Below, piece after piece: positions 3,675 through 30,679 of a stretch of DNA of 30,679 nt. The position numbers and the translations under genes are program-made. Below the pieces are notes generated by a model. That model made no database searches. It saw only the letters and a program-made list of their open reading frames with translations, and had not been told where the DNA came from. Position 1 is the stretch's first letter. Each line of letters starts with the position of its first letter. This DNA comes from Myxococcota bacterium (GTDB taxonomy: Bacteria; Myxococcota; XYA12-FULL-58-9; JABJBS01), in contig JAYZAY010000022.1 of the NCBI GenBank assembly GCA_036339465.1, forward strand, positions 1-30,679, given 5' to 3'.

Positions 3675-3950
3675 CACCCTACTCCTTCTCCACACGACAC
3701 ATTTCCCTTGGAAAATCAGACCACAGCATGGCTGTCGTCGTAAATCAACAGGATAACGAAACAACGCAATATCCCAAGAGGACTCAATATCCGAGAAGCA
3801 GCCTGGACCGCAGTCCATGGCATTTTTCACAATGCGAATTTCGATGTTCGCTGAGGCCCCATCAACTGGTTCTTTAGCATGGCCGATCTCCACCGTTGGC
3901 ATCGCTCCAAAACCCTGAAAGAAGAGAACAATCATTACGGCAACAATATA

Positions 3951-3989
3951 ATCTTCTGGGATATCTTCTGGGATATCTTCTGGGATATC
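3951..3989. repeat. 12-bp tandem repeat ATCTTCTGGGAT x3 plus a partial copy
   Basis: Exact copies at 3951, 3963 and 3975. Confidence 0.95.
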
Positions 3990-4504
3990 GTCTTTGACAC
4001 CGTCTATTGGCCCCGAGATTACCAATCCAAATCGAATATTGGGTTTTCAGAAATGGAACGAGTTTCAAAGAATTATCAGGAACAGCTTTCGTCGCCTATG
4101 AAATGGCAAGACAACGCCGCCCATGACGCAAAATAATCGTGGGCAAAAAGACAACAACTACCCTTCTTTTCTAGTTTTGTGTATTTCGAGAGGAAGGATA
4201 AGTCATCTATTATCACGAAAAAGTTTAGAGCTATCAACCGCGTAAAAATCAGAAAGGGCGAATGAGGAGGAGACTCGACAAGAGCCCCCTCCAAAGAGAA
4301 CGATTACGAGGAATTCAAACTAGTTGTTGCCGTCGTCTTCAAGCCGACCAAAGGCAGGTACCGGTACGAGACTACAACGAAAGAGGGCTTCGTCTAGGTA
4401 GAATCCGTTTTTGCTGAAGCAGCTCCCCTCATCGTGGAACCAAACCTCACTTTGCTCCATATCGAGTGCAAGGTTAGAAACATCGCAGTTCTCCGCAAAA
4501 GTTT

Positions 4505-4750
4505 CATTGGTATTTAGGGCAGTTAAGGACGTAAATTCCGAAAGCCCGGCTCATCAACCGGTGCCAAGCGTCCTCGTTTTGGTGCAGGCCCTGGCATGTT
4601 CACTCCCCTCTTTTGGCTTTCGGTGATTTAGCAGCCCCTTTTTTCTCAAGCGGGTATTGGGCGTAAACACCCCCTGGAAACAAACGAGATAACTTCGCGG
4701 TATTGGGAATGAGAACCACTGGTTTTTCAATACCTATTTTCGGAAATCGG
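4505..4750 (-). mobile_element. IS91-family (Y2 HUH) transposase C-terminal remnant
   Basis: The minus strand reads, across frameshifts, PRSYLVCFQGVFTPNTRLRKK...AWHRLMSRAFGIYVLNCPK. The DNA aligns by eye with 26250-26490 (shared catcaaccgg, gttcactcccctc, cttttgg, aacaaacga, acttcgcggt, tttctcaatac-like stretches). Confidence 0.75.
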
Positions 4751-4829
4751 CAGTCGGGATAAAACGGAGATGGGTGGTGCCGTCTGAGTAAGGCCTTTTA
4801 AGGCGAAGCGACACATCACCACCAAGGCA

Positions 4830-15500: not shown

Positions 15501-18500
15501 ATCGCCTTTTCGCAGGCTCGTATGATGGCGCCCGATGGACGCTGCAAAAGCTTTGACGATTCAGCGGATGGTTACGTTCGAGGCGAGGGCTGTGGGGCTA
15601 TTGTCATCAAATCGTTGACTGAAGCATTGGAAGATGGTGACCCAATCATGGCTATCATTCGAGGATCCGCCGTCAATCAGGATGGGCGTAGCAATGGAAT
15701 CACCGCTCCAAACGGCCCGGCCCAAGAAGCGGTCATCCACGCCGCGCTAGATGCAGCCAATCTCTCCAGTAATGACATCGACTACATCGAAGCACATGGA
15801 ACCGGAACATCATTGGGGGACCCCATCGAGTGTCTCGCCCTAGGGAACGTATTTGCACGGGAGAAAGATGCCCCCTGCATCTACCTTGGTTCAGCCAAGA
15901 CCAATATCGGTCACCTTGAAGCAGCAGCAGGTGTCGCGGGCCTTCTTAAAGTGATCCTCTCCATGGAACACAAAAAGATACCCGCCCACTTACATTTTCA
16001 AAAGCCAAGCGAAAAAATTCCGTGGAAAAATCTACCCTTTCGAATTCCAACAGAACCTATTCCCTGGCCAACCAGAGACCATGAAAAACTAGCCGGCATT
16101 AGTTCGTTTGGATTTGGTGGAACAAATTCCCATGTAATTATTCAAAGCCCACCTCCACAAGAAGAAGTCGAACTGGCCATGGCGCGACCCCGACACATTC
16201 TCACTCTTTCTGCCAAATCACACGAGGCACTCCAAAAAGGAGCTGACCGTTTCGCCACATACTTCGAAGCTCCAAGCCATCCTAATATCGAAAACATTTG
16301 TCACACTTCCAACGCTCATCGGGACCACTTCGAACATAGAATGGCTGTCACCGGCAGTTCATTCGAAGAAATTCATCGCTCGCTTCGAGGCTACCTAGAA
16401 GGCCAAGAGGTCCCTCAAGTCGCCACAAGTCGGATCAGAAAGCACCGAAAGAATAAAATAGCTTTTCTCTTTAGCGGGCAAGGCTCCCAATATGTGGGAA
16501 TGGGACGAGAGCTCTTCAATCGTCAGCCTTTGTTCCGGATGGCAATGGAGCAATGTGACATCATCCTTCAGCAACACCTGGGCACCTCTATCATCGATAA
16601 AATCTACGGTGAGAATGCAACCGAGGAAAAACTAAGTCGGACCCTTTACACCCAGCCAGCGATTTTTTCCCTCGAATACTCCCTTGCGATTCTCTGGAGC
16701 ACTTGGGGTATCGTACCTGATATCGTCATGGGCCACAGCATTGGTGAAATAACCGCCGCCTGTGTCGCTGGCGTAATGACCCTCAATGATGCCCTCAAGT
16801 TAGTCGCTTGCAGAGCCAAAGCCCTAGATAATCTGCCCGAGGGTGGCACAATGATGGTCCTCTACGGTCAAAAGGGTGAAATTGACGCTCTGATTTCTCC
16901 ATACCCCGAAAGTGTCGGTCTGGCGGGGCACAATTCAGCCAACGAATTTGTTATATCGGGCAGGCAAAAAGACATCGACGACATCGGTATCAAAGCGAAA
17001 GCCAAGGGATTGTCACTCACAACTCTCAAGGTTTCCCAAGCATTTCACTCGCCTCTGGTTGAAAGCTCCCTGGATGAATTTGCGACTGCGATTCAGGAGA
17101 TCCCCATGCGATCCCCCCGTATAGATATCATATCGAATATCACTGGTTCCATGGTGACCAGTGATATGGCAACACCCAGCTATTGGCGACACCACGTGAG
17201 AAAGCCTGTTTTATTTTCCAAAGGACTCGAAACCATCAGAAGCTATGGTGCAGATGTATTCGTTGAATGTGGCCCTCACACCACGCTCCTAGGTTTGGGT
17301 CGACGCTCTGTTCCCGCTGGTATCGGACAATGGCTCCCATCCTTAAAGCGTAAACGCGACGACTGGGAACAAATTCTCGAGACAGTAGCCACCCTCTATT
17401 CCATCGGTGCCCCCATTAATTGGGACGGTTTTGATGCTGGATACATTAGGCGGCGAGTTCGAATCCCCAATTATCCCTTTCAACGAGAACATTATTGGAT
17501 TGAAGAAGCAACTCAGGTCACACGAACCATCAGAAAGAAGATCGATGAAATTCGCGATGAGGAGATGCATCCTCTCCGCGGTCATCAAATCGAAGTCAGT
17601 AACCTTCAAGAAGGTGAGAGTCTTTTTGAGCTAAATCTTTCGACTGACTTACCGGTTTTTTCTCTATCAAGTTTGGGAGAAGACGTTTCCTACTTATCCC
17701 GACCCGCTTTCATCGGCATAGCACTGGAAGCCGTGAAGCAATTGAAGCCAAACGACTCATGGAATCTGATGCACTACGAAGCGCCACATAGGATTTCTAC
17801 GAAAAGGGGTGGGAGCATCCAATGTCAGGTTCTTCTCCAAAAACACGGAGAAGACTATCAATTCAAAGTTTCAACCTCTATCCCAAAATACGACGGTGGT
17901 CGCTCCAACTGGAATCAAAGCGCAACAGGGAAGCTTATCCTCCAGAGAAACGAAGAACCGACCAAAAACCAATCGTTGGTATCGCTCCAAGAAAAGATTG
18001 AAGTATTCGAAACTCCAGCCAACTACTACGAGCGCTGTTCTGAACTTGGCCTCGGATATACGAAAAGTCAAAATGAATTCATCTCCAAAATATTCCGAGC
18101 AGAGAATCAGATATTGACCCAAGTAAAGATTCCATCCATGGCTGGCGATAGAGTTAGAACTTTTCAAACCTCCCCCGAGCTACACGATGCCTGTAAGCAG
18201 ACTTACGGTGCCCTTTGTCCTTTGGATGGTAAAGGCACCTATGAACCCGTGGCATTCGAACGAATGGTTAGCACAGATCTCGCTAGCACCATCCTCTGGA
18301 TTCACGGTCAACTGCATCCAAACCGGAAAACAGACACGAACTTTCTCACCATGGACCTCTGCATATACACAGAAAACGGGGAACTCGTCAGTCAAATCCA
18401 AAAGCTCAAATTGGTTCCTGCCCCCAAAGAAAAGACCCTCGGTGAACAACTACTCATTGCCAACGAAGAAGAACAGTTGTTCACCATCAAGACCTTTATA

Positions 18501-19571
18501 CATAACCAGCTAGCCAAGGGACTTAAAATACCCTCCGATAAGTTAGATCCCAATGTTTCTCTTACTGAGTTGGGATTAGATTCATTGGTCGCCCTCGAAG
18601 TGGTCAACAGCACTGAAAAACAACTGGGAATAAAAATAAATATCACCAAACTGGTCGAGGGGACCACAATCGCGACCTTGACTGAATACGCCATGGAGCT
18701 TTTCGCCGGAGACGAACAAACCGGGGAAACCACCTCCAATGCCGAACCTGAAGAGCCCGACGATCCAGTCTTGGTGCCATTTTCGAAGTTGGCCCAAGAC
18801 CAGCCACCAATCTTCTTCGTACATCCCGTGGGGGGATCTGCACTTTGCTATGTGGATTTAGCACGAGCTCTCGAAGACAAACACGCCTTTATCGGAATAC
18901 ATCAACCCCTCCTGGTCGACATTGAGCAAAACGTTGATTCAATTGAGAGCATCGCCGCTGATTATGTCAGTCGTATTCAAGAAAAACAGCCACAGGGACC
19001 CTATAGACTGGCTGGATGGTCAATGGGGGGAGTCATCGCTTTTGAAATGGCCAAGCAACTCACAGATCTTGGTAAAACTGTAAGCTTCTTAGGTATCATC
19101 GATGGAAAGGCCCCCAGCGCAAAAAATCATAGTTTACCCCACGACAAAACCGAATTCCTGCTCCGAATCTTAGCCCAAGATATGGGGATCCCCTACGAAC
19201 GCTTGGACCTGGAATTATTGCGAACTACCGAACTCGACGAGGGCCTACGCTGCATTTTGAGATTGGCCAAAGATGCCAATATCGTCCCGTGGAATTATCG
19301 AATCAAGGACTTTAGAAAACTCTTCGAAATCTTTGAGCAAAACCTGCGAACTTTGAATTCATACTCCCCAGATCCCTTCGATGGAAGAGTCCATGTATAT
19401 AGGTCTGAAATCCCTCTACCAGAACACAAAGAAGCTCCCGAAGATATGGGGTGGGGTCCATTGTGCCATAGTGTCGCATGCTCTCACGTCATCTCGGGAA
19501 CACACTTCACCCTTATTCGAAAACCGAATGTTGAAACCCTCGCCAAACATCTGAACGAAGCGTTAAAGTAG
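12555..19571 (+). CDS. Single-module type I PKS: FAAL-ACP-KS-AT-pseudoDH-ACP-TE (2338 aa)
   Basis: FAAL: TSGSTGDPKG, WLPLFHDLGL, PNFAYEL, FAAL insertion, KTSSGKIQR. ACP1: GLDS near 14690. KS: DTACSSS, HGTGT, NIGHLE. AT: GQGSQ, GHSIGE, QAFHS. DH-like region: HPLRG...LHDACKQ. ACP2: LGLDSL. TE: HPVGG, GWSMGG, GTHF. No KR Rossmann motif seen. Confidence 0.95.
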   Translation: MAQGPKEISTQNAQSLVEILQQRAKRQPDDLVFRFLHSGDAKGPITEWSFAQLDKRVRIIGNYLQKQQLRDKPVLLLYPADLEFIAGFFACLYSNIIAVPVAAPHPVQMSKMMPRLVSIIRDAGAHVVLTTQKVVEYATLFTANHKELKSLQWVATDKLTQEPDGWDIPPPDPHATAFIQNTSGSTGDPKGVMLSHHNLLQDQRMLKMGSERSSDTKIVCWLPLFHDLGLVANVLHTVFLGAQCTLMSPLSFLQKPARWLQAISYYRADLSSAPNFAYELSSRKISKEDCQGLDLSCWQVAGNGAEPVRFTTLRKFAEKFAPQGFLYTALNPVYGLAESTVACSGKPKIQDEPTIQWLSEEALRNNEVTFTKPGTDGSRALVSAGRFDWLGQEIIVVDPDSHKMLEDRCVGELWLKSDIVGKGYWKRPELSREIFENEPIDGPTGPFLKSGDLGFIHEEQLYITGRLKDLIIVRGKNHYPQDIELTVENAHQDIRNGCVAAFCLDSEQEERLVIVAEVKERPQPTQAEEIREEILRAVAGSHELKPHDIALIEPRSISKTSSGKIQRQKTRQAYASNKLKIANSKSKLKKFKEDTQSKMHIALSTSPAFLQLRYRATKLLQNIRSVRDSMKDREDIRVEEANILDTETAKSHNESEDFSASKTSQIIATIPTPSPKGQEVDVTESLIATMLAEHLGISVDDIDTTATFDTFGLDSKSLVALSGDLATVLQKEFPPTILYDYPTILALAKFIADPPRSESKKGHPRPRTSASNNYEPMAIIGAACRMPGGANTLESFWENLINSKDCISEVPSSRWDWREFYNANGIIPGKMSTKWGAFIDDPSLFDARFFSISPREAPRIDPQQRLALEVTWEALENAGIAPKSLEGSQTGVFLGISHSDYGRMQSNDRLNFGIHASTGNTLSIAANRISYAFDLRGPSMAVDTACSSSLVALHHACRSIQLGDSQLAIAGGVNLILSPDLTIAFSQARMMAPDGRCKSFDDSADGYVRGEGCGAIVIKSLTEALEDGDPIMAIIRGSAVNQDGRSNGITAPNGPAQEAVIHAALDAANLSSNDIDYIEAHGTGTSLGDPIECLALGNVFAREKDAPCIYLGSAKTNIGHLEAAAGVAGLLKVILSMEHKKIPAHLHFQKPSEKIPWKNLPFRIPTEPIPWPTRDHEKLAGISSFGFGGTNSHVIIQSPPPQEEVELAMARPRHILTLSAKSHEALQKGADRFATYFEAPSHPNIENICHTSNAHRDHFEHRMAVTGSSFEEIHRSLRGYLEGQEVPQVATSRIRKHRKNKIAFLFSGQGSQYVGMGRELFNRQPLFRMAMEQCDIILQQHLGTSIIDKIYGENATEEKLSRTLYTQPAIFSLEYSLAILWSTWGIVPDIVMGHSIGEITAACVAGVMTLNDALKLVACRAKALDNLPEGGTMMVLYGQKGEIDALISPYPESVGLAGHNSANEFVISGRQKDIDDIGIKAKAKGLSLTTLKVSQAFHSPLVESSLDEFATAIQEIPMRSPRIDIISNITGSMVTSDMATPSYWRHHVRKPVLFSKGLETIRSYGADVFVECGPHTTLLGLGRRSVPAGIGQWLPSLKRKRDDWEQILETVATLYSIGAPINWDGFDAGYIRRRVRIPNYPFQREHYWIEEATQVTRTIRKKIDEIRDEEMHPLRGHQIEVSNLQEGESLFELNLSTDLPVFSLSSLGEDVSYLSRPAFIGIALEAVKQLKPNDSWNLMHYEAPHRISTKRGGSIQCQVLLQKHGEDYQFKVSTSIPKYDGGRSNWNQSATGKLILQRNEEPTKNQSLVSLQEKIEVFETPANYYERCSELGLGYTKSQNEFISKIFRAENQILTQVKIPSMAGDRVRTFQTSPELHDACKQTYGALCPLDGKGTYEPVAFERMVSTDLASTILWIHGQLHPNRKTDTNFLTMDLCIYTENGELVSQIQKLKLVPAPKEKTLGEQLLIANEEEQLFTIKTFIHNQLAKGLKIPSDKLDPNVSLTELGLDSLVALEVVNSTEKQLGIKINITKLVEGTTIATLTEYAMELFAGDEQTGETTSNAEPEEPDDPVLVPFSKLAQDQPPIFFVHPVGGSALCYVDLARALEDKHAFIGIHQPLLVDIEQNVDSIESIAADYVSRIQEKQPQGPYRLAGWSMGGVIAFEMAKQLTDLGKTVSFLGIIDGKAPSAKNHSLPHDKTEFLLRILAQDMGIPYERLDLELLRTTELDEGLRCILRLAKDANIVPWNYRIKDFRKLFEIFEQNLRTLNSYSPDPFDGRVHVYRSEIPLPEHKEAPEDMGWGPLCHSVACSHVISGTHFTLIRKPNVETLAKHLNEALK

Positions 19572-19572
19572 T

Positions 19573-19620
19573 ATCCCCACTTCCATCCCTACTTCCATCC
19601 CTACTTCCATCCCTACTTCA
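19573..19620. repeat. 12-bp tandem repeat ATCCCTACTTCC x4
   Basis: Copies at 19573, 19585, 19597 and 19609 (first and last have one mismatch), between the convergent PKS and KSIII genes. Confidence 0.95.
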
Positions 19621-19651
19621 GACACAGAGTCATTAAGAGATTCGATGGAAG

Positions 19652-20674
19652 CTAGTAGGTCATGACCGCGCCGCCCAGTGACAAACCGGCCCCTGTCCCG
19701 ACCATCATCATTCGACCTCCACGCTTTAGTCTACCGGTTTTGATAGCCTCATAGAGCGCCGATGGAATCGAAGCCCCCACACAATTCCCATAATTCGCAA
19801 CAATGTCCACCATCTTCTCCGAGCGAATGCCTGCATATTGCTCCAAAATCTTCGCCGCTACCTTAAGTCCGGTCTTACTCGTTTGATGCGGAATAACAAG
19901 TTCAACCTTGGGTTCGTGGGGTGGACATAGCCGAGCCAGAAAAGGTGGCATCAAGTCCACTGCCATCTTTAATACCTCGGGACCATTCATCGAAAAATAA
20001 TGGTCTTCTCTTTGGGTATTCGCACTATTGGGATGACGAGTCGATCCACATCCCCTTAGAGTGGTCAAATCAACCCCACTACTGTAGGTCTCAAAAAGGA
20101 GCCGATGAAGAGCGGACTCCTCCTCAGCAGGTGTGGGCACCACAACCGCCGCCGCCGCAATATCACCAAAAAGGGTAAAACTCTCAGCCTCATCTTTATT
20201 GAGACCTACCGACGCAATATCCGAACTAACAATGAGCACTTTTTCGTGCTGCCCCGTGGCAATGAACGCAGCCGCAACATCGATGGCGGTGATAAAGCTC
20301 AAACAAGTGGAGTGCACCGTCATACATTTGATACCCGAATCCTGAAGCCCTAATTCCCGTTGGATATAACACGCACCATCGGGAATCATCTGACCATGAC
20401 TACCGCTGGCATTGATAATCAAATCGATATCGCCCACAGCAATACCTGCGTCCTCAAGGGCCTCATTCGCCGCTTGGGCCCCCATCCATGGAGCCGTTTC
20501 TCCACCTTCAACGTCTGCCCATCGCCTCTCGAAAACACCGTTCGCCTTGGAACTGGTTCCCTCCGGAATATCACAAAGAGCCTCCGCCTCACTGGCCAGA
20601 ACAATCCTTTTAGGCAGATAACGCCCCACGCCTCGAATCTTAATTCGTCTTTCACTCTTCGACATATCCGACAT
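19652..20674 (-). CDS. 3-oxoacyl-ACP synthase III (FabH/OleA-like condensing enzyme)
   Basis: Cys-His-Asn triad in HSTCLSF, IPHQTS and YGNCVGAS, plus LFGDIAAA and C-terminal GTGAGLS. Start probably ATG 20674 or 20665. Confidence 0.9.
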   Translation of the reverse strand: MSDMSKSERRIKIRGVGRYLPKRIVLASEAEALCDIPEGTSSKANGVFERRWADVEGGETAPWMGAQAANEALEDAGIAVGDIDLIINASGSHGQMIPDGACYIQRELGLQDSGIKCMTVHSTCLSFITAIDVAAAFIATGQHEKVLIVSSDIASVGLNKDEAESFTLFGDIAAAAVVVPTPAEEESALHRLLFETYSSGVDLTTLRGCGSTRHPNSANTQREDHYFSMNGPEVLKMAVDLMPPFLARLCPPHEPKVELVIPHQTSKTGLKVAAKILEQYAGIRSEKMVDIVANYGNCVGASIPSALYEAIKTGRLKRGGRMMMVGTGAGLSLGGAVMTY

Positions 20675-20892
20675 CCTTCCCTTCCTCGGGCCAAAACAGA
20701 ATAAGGCTGGAGATACGAGTGATATCAATAACGCTAACTCGTCTTATGCAGGAAGTCCATCATACACCTTTCAAAACCCAAAGCCCAAAATAGAACAGTC
20801 TACAATCACACCATACATACAAACGCATACCCTGGTTCATCCGGATAAAGCGAGATATAGTGAAACGAAGAAGAAGGGAGGCCTACAGCCAC

Positions 20893-22137
20893 ATGCTCGC
20901 CCTAGGGTCACAGAAAGTCAACGTTTTATTAACCGGAGGACGAGCCCCCGTGACCCTTGAACTATCCCGACTTCTCTCCGCTGCCGGGCATAAAGTCTTT
21001 GTGGCCGAGAGTCTTCCACTTCATATTTGCCATTTCTCAAATACGGTTACATCCAACCTCCATATCCCCGCTCCGAATTCAGATCTAGATGGATTCGGTG
21101 AAGCCCTCTCGAAAATCATCAACGAATATAATATCGATTACCTAATCCCAACCTGCGAAGAGGTTTTTCACGTCTCTAGGGTAATGAGTAAACTTCCGGA
21201 ACGATGCAACGTTTTTACCGACACCATCGAGAAACTAAGAAAGCTACACAGTAAAAAAGAATTTATGGAATACGCTTCCAGTTTTGGTTTACCTGTACCG
21301 GAAACCAGAAGAGTCACCTCCATGAAGGCGGTCCACCAAAAACTCGCCACCGGTGAGGACTTTGTTCTCAAAAAGGTCTTTTCCCGATTTTCTTCCGACA
21401 CCATTCTACTTCCCAAGACGCCTCAGGATGTCGAAGGCATTGAGATAGGCGAAGACACCCCTTGGGTCATTCAGGAGTACCTGGGAAAAAAACAGTTCTG
21501 CACCTATTCCATTGTCGTCAAAGGAAAAATCCAGGGCCATGGGACCTACCCTACCACCTATACCGCCGGTCAGGGCGCGAGCACCTATTTTGAATCCGTT
21601 CAACCCCAAGAGATCTATGAATGGATAGAGAAATTCGTTGGCGCCATTGAATACACGGGTCAAATATCCTTTGACTTTATGGAAACTTCCACAGGTAAAA
21701 TTTTGCCCATTGAGTGTAACCCCCGTGCAACCAGCGGCGCTCATCTTTTCGCCCCCACCGATAACATCGACCACGCCTTCTTTGGGTCCCCCTCTAAACC
21801 CATATTTCCCGCATCCAATCGGCCATCGATGGTTGGAATCGGGATGGCTTTGTACGGAATCCCGGCGGCAATCAAAACAAGATCCGTGATGCAATGGTTC
21901 GCAGACTGGCGCAAAGCCAGAGACGTCGTATTCTCAACCAAAGACCCGGTTCCGGTGCTAGGACAGTTCTTTTGTTATATGGTCTTTTCTTGGCTCGCCC
22001 TTAAGAGTGGCAATACCATACTCGCTGCGTCCACAATCGACATTGAATGGAATGGAAAGCTAAGTCCTGGAGAACAATCGACCGTTGAAAATCAAGAAGA
22101 GACAATCGAGAGCTTAACCCAAAACTCCCGGAGTTAG
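20893..22137 (+). CDS. ATP-grasp domain protein
   Basis: VLLTGGRAPVTLEL, LIPTCEE, LHSKKEF, VLKKVFSRF, WVIQEYL and YTGQISFDF...IECNPRATSG (ATP-grasp ExNPR). ATG 20893 follows GGAGG. Confidence 0.85.
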   Translation: MLALGSQKVNVLLTGGRAPVTLELSRLLSAAGHKVFVAESLPLHICHFSNTVTSNLHIPAPNSDLDGFGEALSKIINEYNIDYLIPTCEEVFHVSRVMSKLPERCNVFTDTIEKLRKLHSKKEFMEYASSFGLPVPETRRVTSMKAVHQKLATGEDFVLKKVFSRFSSDTILLPKTPQDVEGIEIGEDTPWVIQEYLGKKQFCTYSIVVKGKIQGHGTYPTTYTAGQGASTYFESVQPQEIYEWIEKFVGAIEYTGQISFDFMETSTGKILPIECNPRATSGAHLFAPTDNIDHAFFGSPSKPIFPASNRPSMVGIGMALYGIPAAIKTRSVMQWFADWRKARDVVFSTKDPVPVLGQFFCYMVFSWLALKSGNTILAASTIDIEWNGKLSPGEQSTVENQEETIESLTQNSRS

Positions 22138-22141
22138 AGTC

Positions 22142-23137
22142 ATGAGCAAGCGCATCTTAGTCACCGGGGCAACCGGCTTCCTTGGAGGTGGGGTAGCCCG
22201 GCGACTTCTCGCAGAGGGACATGATGTCCTAGGGACCGGCAGAAACCTTGCAAAGGGCCAAAAACTACAGAGCGACGGCGTCGAGTTTCAAGCTGCCGAC
22301 CTATCGGATACACCAGCGGTTCAGAAGCTATGTGATGGTCGCGACATTATTATCCACAGCGCCGCACTCTCCGCACCTTGGGGGAAATTAGAAGACTTTC
22401 GCGTCGCTAACATCGATGCCACCCGTCATATCCTAGACGCGACGAAGAGATGTGGGGCAGAACGACTCGTCCACATATCATCACCCAGTGTTTATTGCAG
22501 TGGGGTTGACCAATTCAATATCCCCGAAGACCAACCCTTTACCACTTCGCCATTGAACCATTATATTCACTCCAAAATCGAAGCAGAAAAACTTATCTCA
22601 GAATCAGACATACCCCATGTCATTCTTCGTCCTCGGGGATTATTTGGGCCCGGAGACCCTTCCATCTTCCCACGATTGATCGACCGCATGTCCAAAAAAA
22701 AACTACCGATTGTAGGAAAAGGAAACAATGTTGTAGACATCACCTACATAGACAATGTGGTCCATGCGACGTGCCTGGCCGCCTTGAGTAAAAGCCCAGA
22801 AGTTTTGGGAGGCATCTACAACATCACCAACGGCGAATCCATCGAATTATGGAGCTTCCTGAAGGAACTCGCTAACCAATTAGAGATACCACGCCCCAAT
22901 CGACATATCCCCTATGATTTCCTCTACGCAATTGGCTCCATCCTAGAAACAATCCACCGACTTTTCTTGCCCGAAAAAGAGCCGAGAATTACCCGTTATG
23001 GGGTCGTCGTCCTAGGGCGAAGTACCACCCTCAATATTAACAAAGCCAAAAAAGAACTTGGGTACGAACCGGTTGTTGGTGTCTGGGAAGGACTCACTCG
23101 TTACGTCGCCTGGTGGAAGAACCAAAAAAATCACTAA
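22142..23137 (+). CDS. NAD(P)-dependent extended SDR, 3-beta-HSD/OleD-like reductase
   Basis: TGATGFLG Rossmann motif, HSAA, HISSPSVY, catalytic YIHSK, LRPRGLFGPGD and YIDNVVHA. Confidence 0.9.
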   Translation: MSKRILVTGATGFLGGGVARRLLAEGHDVLGTGRNLAKGQKLQSDGVEFQAADLSDTPAVQKLCDGRDIIIHSAALSAPWGKLEDFRVANIDATRHILDATKRCGAERLVHISSPSVYCSGVDQFNIPEDQPFTTSPLNHYIHSKIEAEKLISESDIPHVILRPRGLFGPGDPSIFPRLIDRMSKKKLPIVGKGNNVVDITYIDNVVHATCLAALSKSPEVLGGIYNITNGESIELWSFLKELANQLEIPRPNRHIPYDFLYAIGSILETIHRLFLPEKEPRITRYGVVVLGRSTTLNINKAKKELGYEPVVGVWEGLTRYVAWWKNQKNH

Positions 23138-23150
23138 ATGTAGTCTCAAC

Positions 23151-24152
23151 ATGGAACACACCCATTCTACATCTCCAAAGCAATCGACCCAAACATCGAT
23201 GGTGCCAGCCCGCTCCCAGGATGTCGCTGAACGAACAAAAACTTTACTCCATGAAATCCTAGCCTCCAAGAGACTCCAAAAGCGAAAGACCCTGTCTATG
23301 ATTTTTTGGGGATTCGCCGCAGTCTTGTATTTTCCAGTGGGACTATCTTTCATAGCCCTAAGACTTAGGCTGATCCTTCTCTACCGATAATCTGCACAAC
23401 CCCTCTACCTCCGACTCTCGCCGGTTGGGTCACACGGAGAATTCTATTTCCCGCCCTTGGTTTCCGAATCCGAGCCACAGGCATTCAGCATCTTAAACAG
23501 GCACTTGTGGACACGCCCTTCTTCGTCATCACAATCAACCACATTTTTTACGCCGACAGTGCTATCATCTTTAAGTTGCTGCAACAGGCAGGCTGTACTC
23601 ATTACTCGCTTTTGGCATCGACCCTGATGGCAGGAGAAGGCCAGTGGGAGCGACTCAAAAGGCCATGGAATCGTCAACAAAACGGTCTACACCAGAAGCG
23701 TTGCCGCAACCAACTTAGAAAAAGAACAGACCCGGCAAGAACTTGCGACTCTGGTTCAACAATCCAAAAACCTTCCTGACTGCCAACCCCTCGTGGTCTT
23801 CCCCGAAGGGCAAGTTCATAATTACAACCAATACCTATTACGCTCTGAAAAATTCTGTTTTGGCCTCAACCAACCGATTCTACCCATTGCCCCTAAGTTT
23901 CAATATCCCTGGCCATTGAATTTTTGGATTGCCAACGAGAATCAAGTGTTCACTTGGTTACTCCTCCTCTTTGTGCCCTGGGTTCATTGGGACTACCGAA
24001 TCCTGCCATTGACCACCCAAGAGAAAGAGGAGAAAGACCATACCTTCGCCCAACGCATTCAACACACGACAGCAAAAGCGCTAGGAATATCTCCCACCAG
24101 TTTTACCCTAAATGACGTTGCTAACACCCTGAACAACGGCTCGAAACCCTAG
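23151..24152 (+). pseudogene. Lysophospholipid acyltransferase (PlsC/LPCAT/AUP1-like) split by two frameshifts
   Basis: Frame A gives an N-terminal TM segment (LYFPVGLSFIALRL). After a shift near 23380 it reads LAGWVTRRILFPALGFRIR...INHIFYAD (HxxxxD). After a shift back near 23655 it reads LVVFPEG...LFVPW...FAQRIQ..TAKALG. Confidence 0.75.
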
Positions 24153-24536
24153 AACCTCGCCCAAACAAGATGACAGATGGTTGCAACAATCATAAGCCAC
24201 TCCCTACTTTAACAAGAGCATTCGCAGAATCGCATACAACGGGTTTGTCTTGTCCATACGTTCCAAAGGCTTACCGGAAAAGAACGTAAACTTTATCGGG
24301 ATCCCATGAGGCACTTTGATGACCGAAAGAGAGTCCCGCTTTCCCTTGGGAAAAAAGAGCTCAAACCAGAGGACGCGCAAAGAACCATCATCCTCGACAC
24401 CACTCGAGAAGGAATGGAGGGTGCCATAAGAGAGAGTGTGATTCCTTAAACAATCACACGCAGGTTGAGTGAAAATTGCATTTAAGTCTATAATCACGGG
24501 GAGTGAAATTAATCCTTCGAAAGCTTAGACAAACCC

Positions 24537-25703
24537 ATGTCGACTAACCCCACTAAAGAATTTCCCTCACAAATAGTGCTCTTTCGGGCATCGGAGTTCG
24601 GTCAAATACCCTGGCCAGTTTCGGCAGAGGGCCAGAAGGCTAGGACATGGCTCGAACCGATGCTTGAACACGGAATTGAACCCTATATACGCAATGTGCA
24701 TACCGATCCTGGAGTACTTTTCTGCGATGACAAGGTCGTCCCATTCACCGTGACAAACCCCTTTAAAGATAACTCCTACGTTTGCTCGCCATTTACGCAT
24801 TACATCACCTACGGCCGGGAAGAATTAGAAAAATTGGATTCGCGACTCACTAAAACTATTTTTGGGTGGATCCTCAACCAGGTGGAGCGTTGGTTCGAAA
24901 AAGAAGAATTTGATCGGGTACTGTATGTGAATAATTGGCTCCTCTCTACCAATTTGTACCCGAACCTAGATTGGACAAGAATCGGTGATATTCACCAACG
25001 CCTCCTAACGGAATTCCCAAACTACCCGATTGTCTTTCGCTCAGTTGATCAACGAGCCAATCCAGAGCTCCATAAGGCTCTCGTTGAACTTGGATACGAA
25101 CCGGTCTTTAGTCGCTTCGTTTGGTATCAGGATCCGTCATCCCCCCAAGTTCAAAAAAGAAAAAACTATAAATTAGACCGTTCGATTACGCGAAAATCAG
25201 GTTATAAAATCGTCAGCGGCGACGAACTTGAGGATTCAGATTTCGAGCGAGTGGAAGAGTTATACAACCAACTCTACCTCGAAAAATATTCAAAATTCAA
25301 TCCACAGTTCACCTCTGAGTTTCTTCGGTATCTCTGCCGCGCTGGAATATTAAATATTCGTGCCCTTCGTAAGGCTGGTCGTATAGATGCAGTCCTCGGG
25401 TTCTATACGCGACGGGGAATCGGCACAGCCCCATTGTTTGGATATGACACTTCACTACCGCCAAAGACAGGACTCTATCGTATTTTGAGCTGGGTCTGGT
25501 CAGAAGAGGCAAAAGAACAAGGGCTACTCATCAACTGCTCCGCAGGGGTTGGACAGTTCAAAAAAAACCGTGGCGCTGAACCCGCCTTGGAGTCAAATAT
25601 GGTGTACGCACACCACCTCCCCAAAGCCCGGCGCTGCTGGGGCTTTATTAGATTTATGTTATCCCGATTCATCGTTCCAATTATCCGGAAACATGAGCTG
25701 TAG
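24537..25703 (+). CDS. GNAT/FemAB-like fold protein of the type found with ATP-grasp/KSIII clusters
   Basis: SYVCSPFTHYITYG, VNNWLLSTNLYP, LYNQLYLEKYSKFNPQFT, TAPLFGYDT...GLYRIL and SAGVGQFKKNRGA (C-terminal FKxxxG motif). Confidence 0.75.
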   Translation: MSTNPTKEFPSQIVLFRASEFGQIPWPVSAEGQKARTWLEPMLEHGIEPYIRNVHTDPGVLFCDDKVVPFTVTNPFKDNSYVCSPFTHYITYGREELEKLDSRLTKTIFGWILNQVERWFEKEEFDRVLYVNNWLLSTNLYPNLDWTRIGDIHQRLLTEFPNYPIVFRSVDQRANPELHKALVELGYEPVFSRFVWYQDPSSPQVQKRKNYKLDRSITRKSGYKIVSGDELEDSDFERVEELYNQLYLEKYSKFNPQFTSEFLRYLCRAGILNIRALRKAGRIDAVLGFYTRRGIGTAPLFGYDTSLPPKTGLYRILSWVWSEEAKEQGLLINCSAGVGQFKKNRGAEPALESNMVYAHHLPKARRCWGFIRFMLSRFIVPIIRKHEL

Positions 25704-26108
25704 AGAGAGCCTGAGTTGACATCCGAAAATCATGTCCCCACCACTGATGAACGCTTTACGAAAAGTAGACGCTCACGGTCAAAATAAAGCCCAAATGATT
25801 GATGGTGCACTGCAATAAAAGTTTTCGGTCAACCGTCGAACCGTCCAAAAGTCCCCACTTTCTTTTCCAAAACACCACAGATTTTGGTTTTTCAGAGTCG
25901 AGCATTTTGAACCGAGCACCGAGGAAATCCAAACCCCTATTTTGACACTAAGCGACCCCAACAATCCACTCACTCTCCCGTTCTGGTCTAAAAATCCCCC
26001 AAGCCTTCTCCCAAAACCTCAACTCCGGAATCTCGATTAAAGACATCAAAAAACCTACAAAATAGCGAAGCGAAACGCACCGGTCCATAACCCTGTCTCA
26101 AAAGAGTG

Positions 26109-27447
26109 TCACCCATATTCAAAATTCATTTGCTGAAATCTCAGAGGCCTGAGCTTCGCAGAATCCCAGGAAGTGCCAGATGCTTGAGAATACTCACGAA
26201 TCAAAGTTCCTTGAATAATAGACGACACATTGGTCATCGAGACCTTACATTTCGGACATTCAAGGACGTCTATTTCAAAAACTCGGCGCATCAACCGGCG
26301 CCAAACCATCCGTTCTCTGGTGCATCCCTTGGCGTGTTCACTCCCCTCACCTCTTTTGGTTTTCGGCTATTTAGCTACACTCTTTTTCTGAAACGGGCCT
26401 TGGGCATCCCCCCCCATGGTAACAAACGATGTGACTTCGCGGTTTATGAATTCAATCCACGAGTTTCTCAATACGTATTTTCGCAAATTGTCCGTCGGGG
26501 GGGCACAACATAGAGCACAGTAGCTTCTCAAGTTGCTTGCGGGGATGGGCGAGGATGCAGCCTTTACACCCCAGCTTGTAACTCCTCCCTGAAGCCGCAG
26601 CGCCTTGAATCCCAAACCACCTTAAAGCCGTGACGCCATCCCATGAATAGTTATCCACCAAGAGAAGCCTCGCACACAAAATCAAGGGCCGGCTGCTCAA
26701 ATAGCAGTGGTTCGTCCATGCTCGTGGGGCTGGCTCTTCATCAAGCCACTGCGCCTTGTCGGCGAAGGTTGAGACACGGTCTTATCACAAATTATCTTAC
26801 GCAATGGCTTCGAGGTCTTCTGCGCTGGGGCGCACTAAGCGGTGGAACTCAAGCGCGTCATTAGCCTCCACAAACACACCGTCTGGCATCAGGGTGCGTT
26901 TGTGAAGGTCTAGATTGGCCGCACTCCCAAACCGCAGGATGGAGGTGACCTCGCCGCTCTGCGCTTCACGCACCGAGCTTAGACCCAATTTCTTTTTGGC
27001 TCGGCGGCGCCGCCAACCAAAGACCTCCCCAGTGAAGCGCTTCAGAAGAAGGCTTGCAAAGCCGCAATCGTAAGCGAGGCGGTAGCGGAGGGCGACAGAA
27101 AAATAGAGCACCCATTGCCCCATGGGGCCCCAGGGCAAGACGTTGCCTTTTGAGTGGGCCGCCAAATCAGCCATCCGGCGGCCGCAGCAGCTTGGGAAAA
27201 GACCCCAGCCCTTGCAGGAAAAAACCACCAGGCATTGGTGTCGGCAGAAAAAACACACCACATGGGTAAAGCCGTGGGCTAAGGTGCCGATGCCCAAAAA
27301 AGAGGCGAACTCTTGCCATACGAAGTGTGGGAGGCTGTGGGCGATGGATTCAAGCTCTGAGCGGAAGGTTTCTAGGTGGGTTTGGATGATTTGGTAAAGC
27401 GGCGTCTTTTCCAGGCGGCGGGGTTTGTAAACTGGGGGATGTAACAA
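26109..27447 (-). mobile_element. Degenerate IS91-family transposase pseudogene
   Basis: N-terminal YKPRR.EKTPLYQII, zinc-binding region (HGF...C..C...FSCK..G.FPSC.GRRM) and decayed HUH motif (RFGSAANLDLHKRTL.PDGVF). Further fragments KQLEKLLC and KPRSHIVCYHG, and C-terminal WRRLMRRVFEIDVLECPKC. Multiple stops and frameshifts. Confidence 0.85.
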
Positions 27448-27460
27448 CCTCGGCAGGCAC

Positions 27461-27476
27461 TACAACTTCCGTGCCC
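27461..27476 (-). promoter_or_regulatory. Sigma54-like -24/-12 motif upstream of the IS91 transposase
   Basis: GGGCAC-GGAAG-TTGTA versus consensus TGGCAC-N5-TTGCW; the -12 GC is altered to GT. Confidence 0.3.
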
Positions 27477-27594
27477 GGTTTAGGGCCTCAAAATGGGAGT
27501 CTTTACTTACTTAGGTATTTCGAAACGCGACACATGTAGCAAAATAAGACACATTCCATCTTAGCAACAACGCCATGGCCATTTTCCTTTAAAG

Positions 27595-27680
27595 CTGATA
27601 GGTCATTGGTTTGAATCGATTACCTTAGGCATGAATCATGGAAGATAGTTCCACACGATACAAAGAACTTGCTGAGTTCA
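27595..27680 (+). repeat. 86-bp block, copy 1 (upstream region plus first codons of a truncated gene)
   Basis: Matches 29031-29116 with one mismatch (gatagtt versus gatggtt). A partial third copy lies at 28963-28995. Confidence 0.95.
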
Positions 27681-27760
27681 GAGTTATGGAGTAGGCCTGG
27701 ACTTGAATCGGTCGCAAGTAAGAGGGCTCATGCCACATTTGCTCAACATTGGGAATAGAA

Positions 27761-28363
27761 ATGCACGCGTACATGGATCGACTTCGGGAACTGAACCTAC
27801 AGGCTGTGGAGGGGGGAAGTCACAACTTCAAGCATCAGCAGGATCTGCTGTTGGAAATCGCGAAAAAGAGCAAGCCCGCGCGTGTGCTGGAGATTGGGTT
27901 CAACACAGGCTTTGGGGCTACGCTTTTCCTGAACCAGGGCTGTAAGGTGACGTCGTTCGATATTGGTGAGCATGACTACGTGGCTCGCTGTAAGGACATC
28001 GTGGATGAATTTTTTCCGGGTCGTCACGAGCTAGTGGTGGGGGATTCGGCTCTGACGATTCCGCAGTACACCACTGAGGACCCGTTCGACCTGGTATTTA
28101 TTGACGGAAAGCACAGCTATCGGGGATGCATCGTCGATTTACTCAACTGCATTGACCACTGCAAGTCGGATGCGTTGGTGGTGGTGGACGATGTCTTCAT
28201 AATGAGTGACGACCCCTGCTACTTGGCCATCCAGTCTCTGGAGACGGCTCGTCACTTGCGTCAGTTGAGCTTTCACAAGTACCACGGAGACCGCGGACTG
28301 ATGCTGTGTCGCTACACTGTGGAGCAGTCGGATTGGTGGGGATGCTGGGAAGAACCGGGGTAG
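27761..28363 (+). CDS. Class I SAM-dependent methyltransferase (Methyltransf_24-like)
   Basis: VLEIGFNTGFG, VTSFDIG, LVVGDS, FDLVFIDGKHSY and VVVDDV. Confidence 0.9.
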   Translation: MHAYMDRLRELNLQAVEGGSHNFKHQQDLLLEIAKKSKPARVLEIGFNTGFGATLFLNQGCKVTSFDIGEHDYVARCKDIVDEFFPGRHELVVGDSALTIPQYTTEDPFDLVFIDGKHSYRGCIVDLLNCIDHCKSDALVVVDDVFIMSDDPCYLAIQSLETARHLRQLSFHKYHGDRGLMLCRYTVEQSDWWGCWEEPG

Positions 28364-28375
28364 CTTGGCTCTCTT

Positions 28376-28649
28376 GAGTAAGAGTAAGAATTAAGCAGGA
28401 AGCTTAGTGGCATGGTTCTTAAGTAAAAGTAAGAATTAAGTAAGAATTAAGTAAGAATTAAGTAAGAATTAAGCAGGAAGCTTAGTGAGTAAAATAAAAG
28501 TAAGAATTAAGTAAGAATTAAGCAGGAAATAAGAACAAATAAGAATTAAGCAGGAAGCTTAGTGGCATGGTTCTTGATTTCATCAAGGCATGAATAAGAA
28601 TTAAGCAGGAAGCTTAGTGGCATGGTTCTTGATTTCATCAAGGCATGAA
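28376..28649 (+). repeat. Purine-rich array of variable-length copies of one sequence, (G)TAAGAATTAAGCAGGAAGCTTAGTGGCATGGTTCTT...
   Basis: 11-bp units at 28430, 28441, 28452 and 28501. Longer units at 28385, 28463 and 28512. Exact 55-bp tandem pair at 28540-28594 and 28595-28649. Confidence 0.95.
28618..28633 (+). promoter_or_regulatory. Sigma54-like -24/-12 motif upstream of the Y1 transposase
   Basis: TGGCAT-GGTTC-TTGAT, with the -12 GC altered to GA. The ATG follows 11 nt later. The same motif precedes the second copy near 30550. Confidence 0.35.
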
Positions 28650-28929
28650 TTCACCCAAGATAGACCATCACGTCCGCTCTATTGAATCAAATTGTACATA
28701 CCACATCATCAGTAAAACACGGGGGGGGCTCTATCTCATGGTTCCCCAAAACAGAGTCAGAGAGATTATCATTGGGATTTTGGCAAAAGCCAAAGAAAAA
28801 CACCCAATAATTAAGACCCATTATGCCGTATTCCTCTCAAACCATTTCCATATGATGGCCCAGGGCCCCAATCCTGATTTCTCGTATTTCGTAGGTTTCA
28901 TCAAACTTGACATATCAAGGGCTTACTAA
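28645..28929 (+). mobile_element. Truncated Y1 HUH (IS200/RAYT-like) transposase
   Basis: TYHIISKTRGG...AVFLSNHFHMM (HUH motif). Only 94 aa; the C-terminal half carrying the catalytic Tyr helix is absent. Confidence 0.8.
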
Positions 28930-29063
28930 CCATCCTGCTTATTTTTTTATTTTTTAAAAAAACTGATAGGTCATTGGTTTGAATCGATTACCTTATAACC
29001 ATCCTGTTTATTTTTTTTAAAAAAAAAAGTCTGATAGGTCATTGGTTTGAATCGATTACCTTA
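28927..29063 (+). repeat. Imperfect tandem duplication of about 69 bp
   Basis: TAACCATCCTG(C/T)TTA-polyT-polyA-CTGATAGGTCATTGGTTTGAATCGATTACCTTA at 28927-28995 and 28996-29063. Confidence 0.9.
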
Positions 29064-29073
29064 GGCATGAATC

Positions 29074-29185
29074 ATGGAAGATGGTTCCACACGATACAAA
29101 GAACTTGCTGAGTTCATTTCCGAGAAGATGAGAATGTCGCAGATACATCGGCCGTTGATGCTGGCCGATCTGCTCACAAATCGAA
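29074..29185 (+). pseudogene. 5' fragment of a probable HNH/HIT-domain protein gene
   Basis: YKELAEFISEKMRMSQIHRPLMLADLL resembles the N-terminal FI...MRMSHIYQPVML motif of HNH-HIT fusion proteins (recalled, not searched). The resemblance stops after about 37 codons. Confidence 0.55.
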
Positions 29186-29264
29186 CGCAGGGTCTTAGCT
29201 CGTACCTTTCCCCTCATCGCTTTATTAGCTACCTCCTTCGTGGAGTCGCCTTCGGAGAGAGACA

Positions 29265-30323
29265 ATGACGCTGGAGTCGCTGGTCTTTGCCTCAGCGCAG
29301 AGCCAGTTTCCCATTGGAGAGGGCGGAGGCGAGACCATCATTCGAGACCTTCTCCTGGCTCTGCACAACCGGGGCATACAAGTAGAATCCGATGGAGTGT
29401 GGAACCCAGAGCAGCACTCGCAGCTAGCACAAAACGTCTCTCAGCTTGGGGGAGCTCTGGAGATGTCGCAAGACGGAACTGCCTGTTGTTATAACCTGAA
29501 CTACAATACGCGTCTCGTACCGAGACATGCCTTTGCACAATTGGTGGACGAACAAATAGCCCAGACCGACTCCCAAGTGGTCCTCATCCAGGGCATGGAT
29601 TCCTGGGAGGCCATTGCCGCAGCCAAAAGACAGGGTCGGTTTCCCGTTTTCTACACTCAGAACGGGCGAGAGCTCGAGACCTATCCCGAGGCCAGAACAC
29701 TTCCACTGGTGCTGGCGAACTCCAAATACTTTCAGGCCCGGATGCGGAGCGAGTACGAAATACCTGTAGAGCTCTTGTATCCAGCGGTAGACCTGGACAA
29801 ATACCGGGTGAAAGAGAACAGCCGCCGCTACATCACCATGATTAATCCAGTGGTAATCAAGGGCATTGCCTATGCACTCAAGCTCGCTCTGGCGTATCCT
29901 GAGCGGGAATTCCTGGTCGTCGAAGGTTGGGGAACTCCACCCGACATTCTCTCTGTGATCGAGCGGATCCCTAACGTGACCTGGTGGGACAAACAACTGG
30001 ACATGCGCACAGTCTACTCCCAGACCGACATGCTCCTGGTCCCCTCCCAGTGGGACGAGGCCTTTGGCCGAGTGATCACCGAGGCCCAGATCAACGGAAT
30101 CCCAGTACTCGCCAGCCGGGTGGGAGGGATTCCAGAATCCCTCGGGCCAGGAGGCGTCATGGTCGACGAAATCCAGAGCCCCCAGGCCTGGTCGCGAGGC
30201 CTGGCCGAGGTGATACTTCGCTACGACGAGCTCGCAGTACGTGCCGAAGAGCACGCGGCTCAATTCTCCAGTTCTCGAGCGGCGGAGCGCCTACTCGAGA
30301 TCCTCGAAGACAGAGTGGATTGA
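29265..30323 (+). CDS. Glycosyltransferase family 4 (GT-B)
   Basis: GGGE, LANSKY, INPVVIKG and LLVPSQWDEAFGRVITEAQINGIPVLASRVGGIPE (Ex7E motif). GGAG RBS upstream. Confidence 0.92.
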   Translation: MTLESLVFASAQSQFPIGEGGGETIIRDLLLALHNRGIQVESDGVWNPEQHSQLAQNVSQLGGALEMSQDGTACCYNLNYNTRLVPRHAFAQLVDEQIAQTDSQVVLIQGMDSWEAIAAAKRQGRFPVFYTQNGRELETYPEARTLPLVLANSKYFQARMRSEYEIPVELLYPAVDLDKYRVKENSRRYITMINPVVIKGIAYALKLALAYPEREFLVVEGWGTPPDILSVIERIPNVTWWDKQLDMRTVYSQTDMLLVPSQWDEAFGRVITEAQINGIPVLASRVGGIPESLGPGGVMVDEIQSPQAWSRGLAEVILRYDELAVRAEEHAAQFSSSRAAERLLEILEDRVD

Positions 30324-30576
30324 GGAAAGGAAGGAAGAGGAAAGGAAGAGGAAGTAGGAAGCAAGGAAGAATTAGGAAGAGGAAGAATTAAGGAAGAAGG
30401 AAGAATTAAGCAGGAAAGGAAGAATTAGGAAGAATTAGGAAGAAGGAAGAATTAGGAAGAATTAAGGAAGAATTAAGCAGGAAGCTTAGTGAGGAAGAAG
30501 GAAGAATTAAGCAGGAAGCTTAGTGAAGCTTAGTGTGAAGGAAGCTTAGTGGCATGGTTCTTGATTTCATCCAGGT
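30324..30576 (+). repeat. Second purine-rich array, (A)GGAAGAATTAAGCAGGAAGCTTAGTG...
   Basis: Starts directly after the GT4 stop codon. Many truncated units (GGAAG, GGAAGAATTA, GGAAGAATTAAG, ...CAGGAAGCTTAGTG) lead into the transposase leader. Confidence 0.95.
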
Positions 30577-30679
30577 ATGAATTCACCCAAGATATGCCAT
30601 CACGTCCGCTCTATTGAATCAAATTGTGCCTACCACATCATGAGTAAAACATGGGGTGGGCTCTATCTGATGGCTCCCA
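30577..30679 (+). mobile_element. Second copy of the Y1 HUH transposase 5' end (runs off the window)
   Basis: MNSPKICHHVRSIESNCAYHIMSKTWGGLYLMAP. About 10 mismatches in 103 nt versus 28645 onward (manual count). Confidence 0.85.

Follow-up and report, generated by a model that had tools for sequence, protein, structure and literature searches.

We describe a 1,436-bp gene unit near the right end of a 30,679-nt stretch of DNA from a Myxococcota bacterium (hereafter the window, which is the whole of contig C22, JAYZAY010000022.1, in the 4.17-Mb, 102-contig assembly G000), in which an intact methyltransferase gene and the remnant of a small transposon lie between two copies of an 86-bp block. 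We consider it probable, with some reserve, that this unit (unit 1; 27595..29030, plus strand) was inserted by a TIRtron-like Y1-HUH transposase that acted through one of its ends only, carried in the methyltransferase gene from beyond the other end and duplicated 86 bases of its target. The locus provides a filled allele, an empty allele, a paralogue marking the ancestral state and base-exact junctions.

Structure of unit 1 and its flanking duplication

Read from left to right, unit 1 comprises a first copy of the block, the methyltransferase gene, the left end of the transposon, a decayed and internally deleted transposase gene and the right end, after which the block returns. Block copy 1 (27595..27680, plus strand), the left copy of the 86-bp flanking duplication, carries the first 14 codons of a truncated gene and differs at one of its 86 bases from copy 2, the right copy (29031..29116, plus strand; repeat family D7, joints 27594>29031 and 27647>29084). 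When direct repeats are required to be 40 bp or longer, at least 96% identical and 0.3-6 kb apart, this pair is one of only two in the entire assembly. The gene for a 200-aa S-adenosylmethionine (SAM)-dependent methyltransferase (27761..28363, plus strand) is followed by the stuttered left terminal inverted repeat (28375..28644, plus strand), the same motif that precedes a full-length transposase gene on metagenome contig L040, and by the decayed 5′ third of a Y1-HUH transposase gene (28645..28918, plus strand), the 91 codons of which encode a product 81% identical to residues 1-91 of transposase P0003. An internal deletion fuses this fragment to the right terminal inverted repeat (28919..28962, minus strand; 97% identical to C26:173-209 and 94% to a copy on C56), whose outer edge abuts the start of the block. 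A nested stutter (28963..29030, plus strand; repeat family D6) precedes block copy 2 and is made up of the initial 33 bp of the block followed by another, partial right end.

A first-pass annotation of the sequence had reported that the order of block, cargo gene, purine-rich array and transposase 5′ end occurs twice in the same orientation. This order is confirmed, with arrays at 28375-28644 and 30324-30576 and transposase starts at 28645 and 30577. The implied equivalence of the two units is not, as unit 1 also contains the right inverted repeat (28919), the nested 33-bp block piece and the second right end (28963-29030), which had been overlooked.

The native context of the block is recorded by a paralogous stretch on contig C73. 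The DNA immediately upstream of block copy 1 (27541..27594, plus strand) is common to both loci (C73:92396-92534 against 27541-27680, 83% identity), and the paralogue as a whole (C73:92396-92600) matches 27541-27680 and then 29117-29182 without a break, with no array or transposase beside it. Homology to C73 thus extends for 66 bp beyond copy 2, to 29182, and its upstream part, 27541-27594, sits with copy 1. Since the native flanks are divided, the left one lying beside copy 1 and the right one beside copy 2, the two copies are the halves of a single interrupted locus. The block is, to judge from these alignments, the 5′ end of a truncated gene that was apparently duplicated as the flank of an insertion. 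What remains of that gene (29074..29182, plus strand; about 36 codons) is cut at the start of the segment carrying a GT4 glycosyltransferase gene. Its two short relatives, P0077 (E 2e-4) and P0078 (E 4e-4), were found by exhaustive protein search only; P0077 is 64% identical to the remnant over residues 1-36 and continues past the stop of the window copy. Neither relative could be assigned to a Pfam family, and the HIT/HNH label presumably applicable to this gene is an assumption of ours. No relatives of the gene were found in plasmids, by word-based protein search, in the Atlas or in 150 genomes of the phylum, and the assembly yielded no further part of the gene. The top match of the exhaustive search, P0076, was dropped as a repeat-protein artefact.

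These properties bear directly on the integron-like array put forward by the first-pass annotation, which treats the block as a dedicated attachment site and has units of block, cargo and array added serially to collect glycan-modifying genes. Two foreign genes do lie each between block-derived DNA and a left-end array, and gain or loss affects unit 1 as a whole. The block is nevertheless a coding remnant that occurs on C73 without an array, and the array motif is found on C14, C39, C73 and L040 without the block, an independence that the annotation had itself named beforehand as telling against its proposal. Moreover, the second block continues for 66 bp into native sequence, no third unit was found, and among 146 loci the exact block 30-mer occurs in window-derived loci only. 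As had been noted from the sequence, there is no sign of IntI (best TIGR02249 match 65 bits against a cut-off of 265, in an assembly that is 93% complete) or of attC, the fold of the block being unremarkable (z −1.1 and −1.6) as judged without an attC model. We regard the attachment-site array as largely refuted and an integron-like history of the locus as very improbable. Gain and loss of unit 1 survives from the original cassette proposal; equivalent cassettes with the block as their dedicated site do not. Nor is the suggested collection of surface-glycan genes supported: it drew on two genes of predicted function, and L114, the locus of matching structure described below, carries a TIR/WD40 gene instead.

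Filled and empty alleles

Allelic states were compared at the level of assembled contigs from independent sequencing runs, excluding runs with a share under 0.2. The window stretch is present in seawater runs, which were considered as set A (four runs, including X1 and X4) and set B (a separate four-run comparison covering the filled junctions). In two of the four set A runs, X1 (study P1) and X4 (study P4), which belong to two independent seawater studies, joined contigs skip exactly the 1,436 bp of unit 1, with 180 and 238 bases on their shorter sides. Sequencing depth in X1 lies between 7.1 and 7.6 on the joined contig as well as over the left flank and the GT4 gene, and between 0.6 and 2.6 in bins of the methyltransferase gene, where depth does not equate to share of cells. 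The empty form is colinear with C73:92396-92600. Because it reproduces the arrangement of the C73 paralogue, the empty state is taken to be ancestral and unit 1 to be an insertion, and the data support the behaviour of unit 1 as a module of gain and loss. The phase of the A/G alleles in the block was not used as evidence, as it can be set by bubble removal in the assembler.

The junctions of the filled form are likewise recovered. That between block copy 1 and the methyltransferase gene is bridged in X3 (27357-27908), as is that between the methyltransferase gene and the array (28302-28414), whereas block copy 2 is joined to the GT4 gene in X5, X1 and X4, and the GT4 gene to its array in X3 and X2. 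The junction of the deleted transposase with the right end is present without differences in X5 and X6, its right side being 19 bases long before the remainder enters masked repeat. No single record spans the whole stretch. Misassembly, a risk raised in the first-pass annotation, can be rejected for most junctions, which recur in independent assemblies; the deletion/right-end junction is bridged in part.

The transposase fragment of unit 1 is decayed, differing from L040 at 28 of 270 nt (17 non-synonymous against 7 synonymous codons), and the blocks around it are nearly identical (1 of 86). Together these figures suggest that an old, dead copy arrived here recently with the methyltransferase gene, unless gene conversion keeps the blocks alike.

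The transposon family and its enzyme

The purine-rich arrays are the left ends, in stuttered form, of a TIRtron-like Y1-HUH transposon, and are of a kind general to its family. The element of 1.3 kb that is complete on L040, which furnishes the full-length transposase copy sought since the first-pass annotation, consists of the array, a 319-aa gene and, about 200 bases downstream, the motif found at 28919 in the window. The two motifs are imperfect inverted repeats of each other, and the right-end motif lies 3′ of the transposase gene on C26, C56 and L040. Every array unit in the window shares one fixed start, and the stop point varies. Element ends are often located just past the stop codons of ordinary genes. 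In a fold test the left end folds (z −2.9) and the right end does not (z +0.4 and −0.7). A metagenome scan for the left-end motif returned a single contig, of 1,431 bp and without usable flanks. Pieces of the element terminate contigs C22, C26, C39 and C56. Sequencing depth on the transposase contig exceeds that of single-copy neighbours about 6-9 times in four runs, a depth ratio that is not a copy number. A paralogous element family with its own ends is found on C23, C31, C37 and C80, and another type of array on C58.

The conserved NH-x-H residues of P0003 take the form NHFH, and its Tyr126 is invariant in nine close relatives. The structure model (predicted local distance difference test, pLDDT, 80) has its best fold match in TnpA-REP (4ER8), followed by IS608 TnpA. 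As modelled, the enzyme is a Y1-type transposase with an HUH motif and a predicted catalytic tyrosine, in line with the assignment first made from the sequence. The proteins are 319-322 aa long, with about 57 residues from HUH to Tyr and a tyrosine context of Y-L-L-S-Q-G. The fragment in unit 1 keeps NHFH and lacks the region of the predicted catalytic tyrosine. Profile searches yielded 42.8 bits for NF047646, against a cut-off of 80, and no match of P0003 to NF033573; a Pfam search with the C23 paralogue gave no match at E up to 1. Relatives of the transposase occur in 13 of 21 other genomes of the same order and are widespread in Acidobacteriota.

For a wider view of the family we assembled 88 loci (79 from one survey and 9 of the 20 regions of another, duplicates removed) and dropped 11 with short flanks. 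A strict test called inverted repeats in 26 of the remaining 77, with repeated end cores in 16 of the 26; the flags of L091 and L140 were dropped as a false end call and a weak 72% match, respectively. By eye, no short target duplications are evident at ordinary copies (26 end pairs).

Several other arrangements of element ends were observed. On C73 (76903-76967), left and right ends are fused head to head with no gene between them, forming a REPIN-like doublet whose joint is also present in X1. On C56 (85538-88339), a right end of this element truncates a gene for a 933-aa biotin carboxylase/BCCP-like fusion, the remainder of which was not found in the assembly. Two co-oriented left ends on C39 (65-2523) and C14 (2389-3854) bracket a 739-aa membrane/HEAT-like gene, with a paralogue on C31, and a 348-aa gene without a Pfam family. 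In L040 (1340-1431) and L137, a piece of transposase interior directly follows the right end, as if that end had joined another copy of the element, and in L111 the element itself contains, between the transposase gene and its right end and 94-187 bases past the gene, a 94-bp piece with 91% identity to a permease-like gene located 6 kb upstream.

A matching locus in Acidobacteriota

To establish how often family members are enclosed by duplications, 53 loci with long flanks in other genomes were searched for a direct repeat of at least 30 bp that spans the element and has one copy near an end. Such repeats were present at 7 of the 53 element loci; of 112 shifted controls a single one had such a repeat, and it overlaps a second copy of the transposase. 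On inspection, the repeats of L087, L092 and L137 proved to be the element's own sequence and those of L111 to be paralogous gene pieces; L065 and L100 were unclear.

The remaining locus, L114 (JBIOVX010000153.1, 3269-10250), belongs to Acidobacteriota. Its two 1,076-bp repeat copies, 95.7% identical, enclose in order a gene for a 1,017-aa TIR/WD40 protein, the left end, an intact transposase gene and the right end. The 3.2-kb TIR/WD40 cargo thus lies beyond the left end, and the right repeat copy begins at the outer edge of the right inverted repeat. The copies continue different interrupted genes, as a PAP2 gene is whole in the left copy only and truncated in the right, and a DUF2938 gene is whole only in the right. 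L114 has the same geometry and polarity as unit 1. Its insert starts with a piece of a sibling transposase gene, and its TIR domain (PF13676, also ThsB-like) makes a role of the cargo in defence possible.

At 46 of the 53 loci no repeat spans the family member, the ends lie just past the stop codons of ordinary genes, and the left flanks are mostly not foreign. All of this would suit an account without capture by a transposon, in which TIRtron copies land beside genes in a foreign island, illegitimate recombination brought in the methyltransferase gene together with a dead element, and repeat-mediated deletion produces the empty allele. We nevertheless hold this account to be quite unlikely: in both C22 and L114 the repeat has its first base precisely where the right inverted repeat has its outer edge, the nested 33-bp copy shows the same join, and the shifted controls are without such repeats.

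As a separate observation, ISCR remnants and TIRtron-like elements cluster at L065 (G006:C4) as they do in G000; there, several genes and a Y1 transposase gene are enclosed by gene pieces that are duplicated and carry internal deletions, and by a repeated ISCR-like end.

Cargo genes and the second unit

The methyltransferase gene (PF13578, Methyltransf_24, E 7e-14) and the GT4 glycosyltransferase gene (29265..30323, plus strand; 352 aa; PF00534, E 3e-13) are both open frames. The first-pass annotation had called them intact and apparently more GC-rich than the scaffold, and this is borne out by GC contents at third codon positions of 0.69 and 0.66, compared with 0.49-0.52 in three neighbouring host genes. 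Their 4-mer scores fall in the lowest 0.5% and 0.07%, respectively, of 1,500 random genome stretches. Compositionally, both genes thus appear foreign. Both are also rare in the sampled phylum. The methyltransferase was not found in 200 other genomes, nor its 88% relative in any of the 400 genomes searched; relatives at 83-93% occur in other records, and one close relative is labelled Myxococcota. The GT4 protein has a match, at 34%, in 1 of 200 other genomes. Viral contigs yielded a single 30% match to the methyltransferase and none to GT4.

The GT4 gene, which is also present in the empty allele, is followed at its stop codon by the left-end stutter array of a second transposon copy, delimited by array parsing (30324..30576, plus strand), and by the 5′ end of a second transposase copy that is cut by the contig end (30577..30679, plus strand; 8 of 102 nt differ from L040). 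That GT4 was captured earlier in the same way, with the second element copy and into the same gene remnant, is plausible and perhaps likely: the gene looks foreign in composition, the remnant is cut where the GT4 segment begins, and a left end directly adjoins the gene. The right end of this second copy lies beyond the end of the contig. No known right-end flank matches 29117-29400.

Proposed mechanism and competing explanations

In unit 1 the repeated segment is joined by its first base to the right end, the cargo is found on the far side of the left end, and no repeat is present at the far junction. The strand-joining chemistry of HUH enzymes is established and is the basis for the steps that we propose. 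An intact copy of the element would have supplied the enzyme in trans. By HUH chemistry and the analogy of IS91, the enzyme would have nicked the right end and joined it to the target strand, after which the transferred strand, or its copying, may have run on through the left end and about 700 bases beyond. Template switching, or recombination at short homology, could then have resolved the far end at a point 86 bases downstream of the join. Early, aborted rounds of the same reaction are the likely origin of the stutter arrays and of the nested 33-bp copy. For IS91-family HUH enzymes, one-ended co-mobilisation is established in the available text of PMC13181058.

A number of observations weigh against one-ended insertion by the TIRtron-like enzyme. 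The empty joint is found in none of the four set B runs, and an assembler may collapse an 86-bp repeat, which might conceivably account for the joint, above all in X4, a run with large holes elsewhere. Of the seven repeat-spanned loci in the survey, only L114 stood as a clean second case, and for unit 2 no duplication was found in the assembly. The donor locus of the methyltransferase gene is not among 400 genomes of the phylum, and its close relatives come without DNA context. Composition outside the left ends falls under the 5th percentile in only 2 of 10 left flanks, both in the window, so that the notion of generally foreign left flanks is not supported. IS91-family enzymes leave no target duplication, according to the accessible part of PMC13181058. 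In that of PMC3733652, cleavage and joining by the enzyme of its own inverted repeats is proposed and not performed, and no TIRYT assay is reported. Finally, block copy 1 ends at GTTC, on the strand that an ISCR enzyme would cut.

A broken ISCR/IS91-like HUH transposase element does lie to the left (25918..27447, minus strand; PF14319, E 6e-10; NF052416, ISCR clade Ia, E 7e-37, below the cut-off), with its 5′, ter-side, end toward the block; many remnants of it occur in the genome, with a common end near 25918. Two enzymes could have been at work, a route patterned on what we take to be the model for ISCR1 complex class 1 integrons. In a one-ended transposition that stopped at GTTC, the ISCR-like neighbour would have put the block before the methyltransferase gene, the TIRtron right end would then have attacked the block start and released a circle or fragment, and recombination through the 86-bp homology would have placed it in a second allele. 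The ter side of the remnant faces the block, GTTC at the end of block copy 1 is on the fitting strand and is given as an IS91-family cleavage word in the accessible part of PMC13181058, and the block is linked to DNA upstream of ISCR on C53 and C73. The single A/G difference lies on either side of the joint depending on the run, and the L114 repeats diverge by 4%, as would fit allelic recombination. On the other hand, by a rough estimate the chance that one of about four junctions carries a fitting 4-mer is some 15%, other ter-side breakpoints have no GTNC ending, the local ISCR is broken, and no ISCR-like frame was recognised among the listed open reading frames of L114, which were not searched by profile. 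The allele letters may stem from bubble removal by the assembler, and a join of the TIRtron right end is still required. Weighing these points, we deem the two-enzyme route unlikely.

Insertion by the TIRtron-like enzyme alone would create a product in which the right end is precisely joined, the far flank is carried along and a long duplication is formed, unlike cut-and-paste by IS608 or rolling-circle insertion by IS91. If so, a widespread small element would be a route of horizontal gene gain unseen by annotation pipelines. Only tentatively, and with more doubt than conviction, do we extend this to 320-aa TIRtron-like elements at large as an undescribed gene shuttle, in which one end is spliced to the target, neighbouring genes ride along and a long duplication, from tens of bases to 1 kb, permits loss of the cargo by recombination. 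In Myxococcota and Acidobacteriota alike, such a shuttle would generate cassettes that need no integrase and vary within populations, and genes would be captured serially at hot spots.

Relation to known mobile elements

The nearest described elements are the TIRtrons with their TIRYT enzymes (Di Nocera et al. 2013, PMC3733652), placed in TnpA-Y1 subclass 2.1 by Quentin et al. 2018 (PMC6006769). In the available portions of these sources, a RAYT-like HUH/Tyr transposase gene lies between terminal inverted repeats, which are also dispersed as singles, dimers and clusters. Inverted repeats unrelated to REPs, as in TIRtrons, were found here in L040 and the C23 paralogue. The present proteins differ in being about 320 aa long, with Y-L-L-S-Q-G in place of Y---NP and no Pfam helix-turn-helix (HTH) tail. 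The GGGGWSAS motif is absent from the ends here; within the accessible part of PMC3733652 it is described for some terminal inverted repeats only, others being unrelated. Subclass 2.1, as defined in the available text of PMC6006769, has Y---NP and a C-terminal HTH (Bac_DnaA_C, HTH_23 or HTH_28), both lacking here, and subclass 2.3 (about 325 aa, YVDLNP, 55-aa core insertion) agrees in length but not in motif, the HUH-to-Tyr distance here being about 57 residues. To judge from sequence, then, the element falls within the broad TIRtron definition and outside subclasses 2.1 and 2.3 by their motifs as given in the accessible part of PMC6006769. In their available portions, the accounts in PMC3733652 and PMC6006769 contain no cargo carriage, long flanking duplication or empty site. 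The TIRtron was named in 2013, and a full-text search for the word returned PMC3733652 alone, with no assay in its accessible part. A literature search, with most subscription journals outside its reach, found no paper linking RAYT or TIRYT to gene capture, cargo carriage or long duplications. To an element type that is already known and barely studied, the locus adds an empty allele and a polarity, together with a matching case from a second phylum.

Likenesses to other systems are partial. REPtrons and RAYT-REPIN systems (TnpA-REP, PDB 4ER8) share the best fold match, the weak NF047646 match, ends often past stop codons and the REPIN-like doublet on C73, but the present elements have no GTAG-footed hairpin and few repeat copies, with several very similar copies of the gene itself. 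IS200/IS605 elements have a short TnpA (Y---Q) and subterminal hairpins at both ends, whereas here the protein has 319 aa and only the left end folds. Integron cassette arrays also consist of co-oriented foreign genes separated by repeats, with units gained or lost, but here no IntI over cut-off or attC-like fold is present and the repeats are transposon ends and a target duplication. Helitrons, which are eukaryotic Rep-helicase elements, are not known to have inverted ends or target duplications. They too capture flanking DNA by HUH-based read-through of an end (PMC4778049, accessible part). IS91 and ISCR elements share an HUH enzyme and co-mobilise DNA beyond the end upstream of the transposase gene; in contrast to the inverted ends, stutters and 86-bp duplication seen here, they have oriIS and terIS ends, no terminal inverted repeats and no target duplication (PMC13181058, available text).

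Neighbouring features of the window

A DNA search for the locus in relatives matched none of 40 other genomes. A second ISCR-like 3′ remnant is located at 4512-4758 and is 74% identical to 26249-26499. Across the ISCR-like family (25918, C31, C53, C54, C73 and C84), a conserved CCTAGG-like terminal word stands beside words of GTGC/GTAC type, which may possibly reflect a target preference. To the left of the island, from 12555 to 25703, genes for a FAAL-PKS protein (2,338 aa) and for FabH-like, ATP-grasp-like, epimerase and GNAT proteins form a lipid or secondary-metabolite cluster, and the 1,235-aa product of a minus-strand gene at 318-4025 combines EGF-like repeats with IMPa domains and a peptidase domain of M60-like type.

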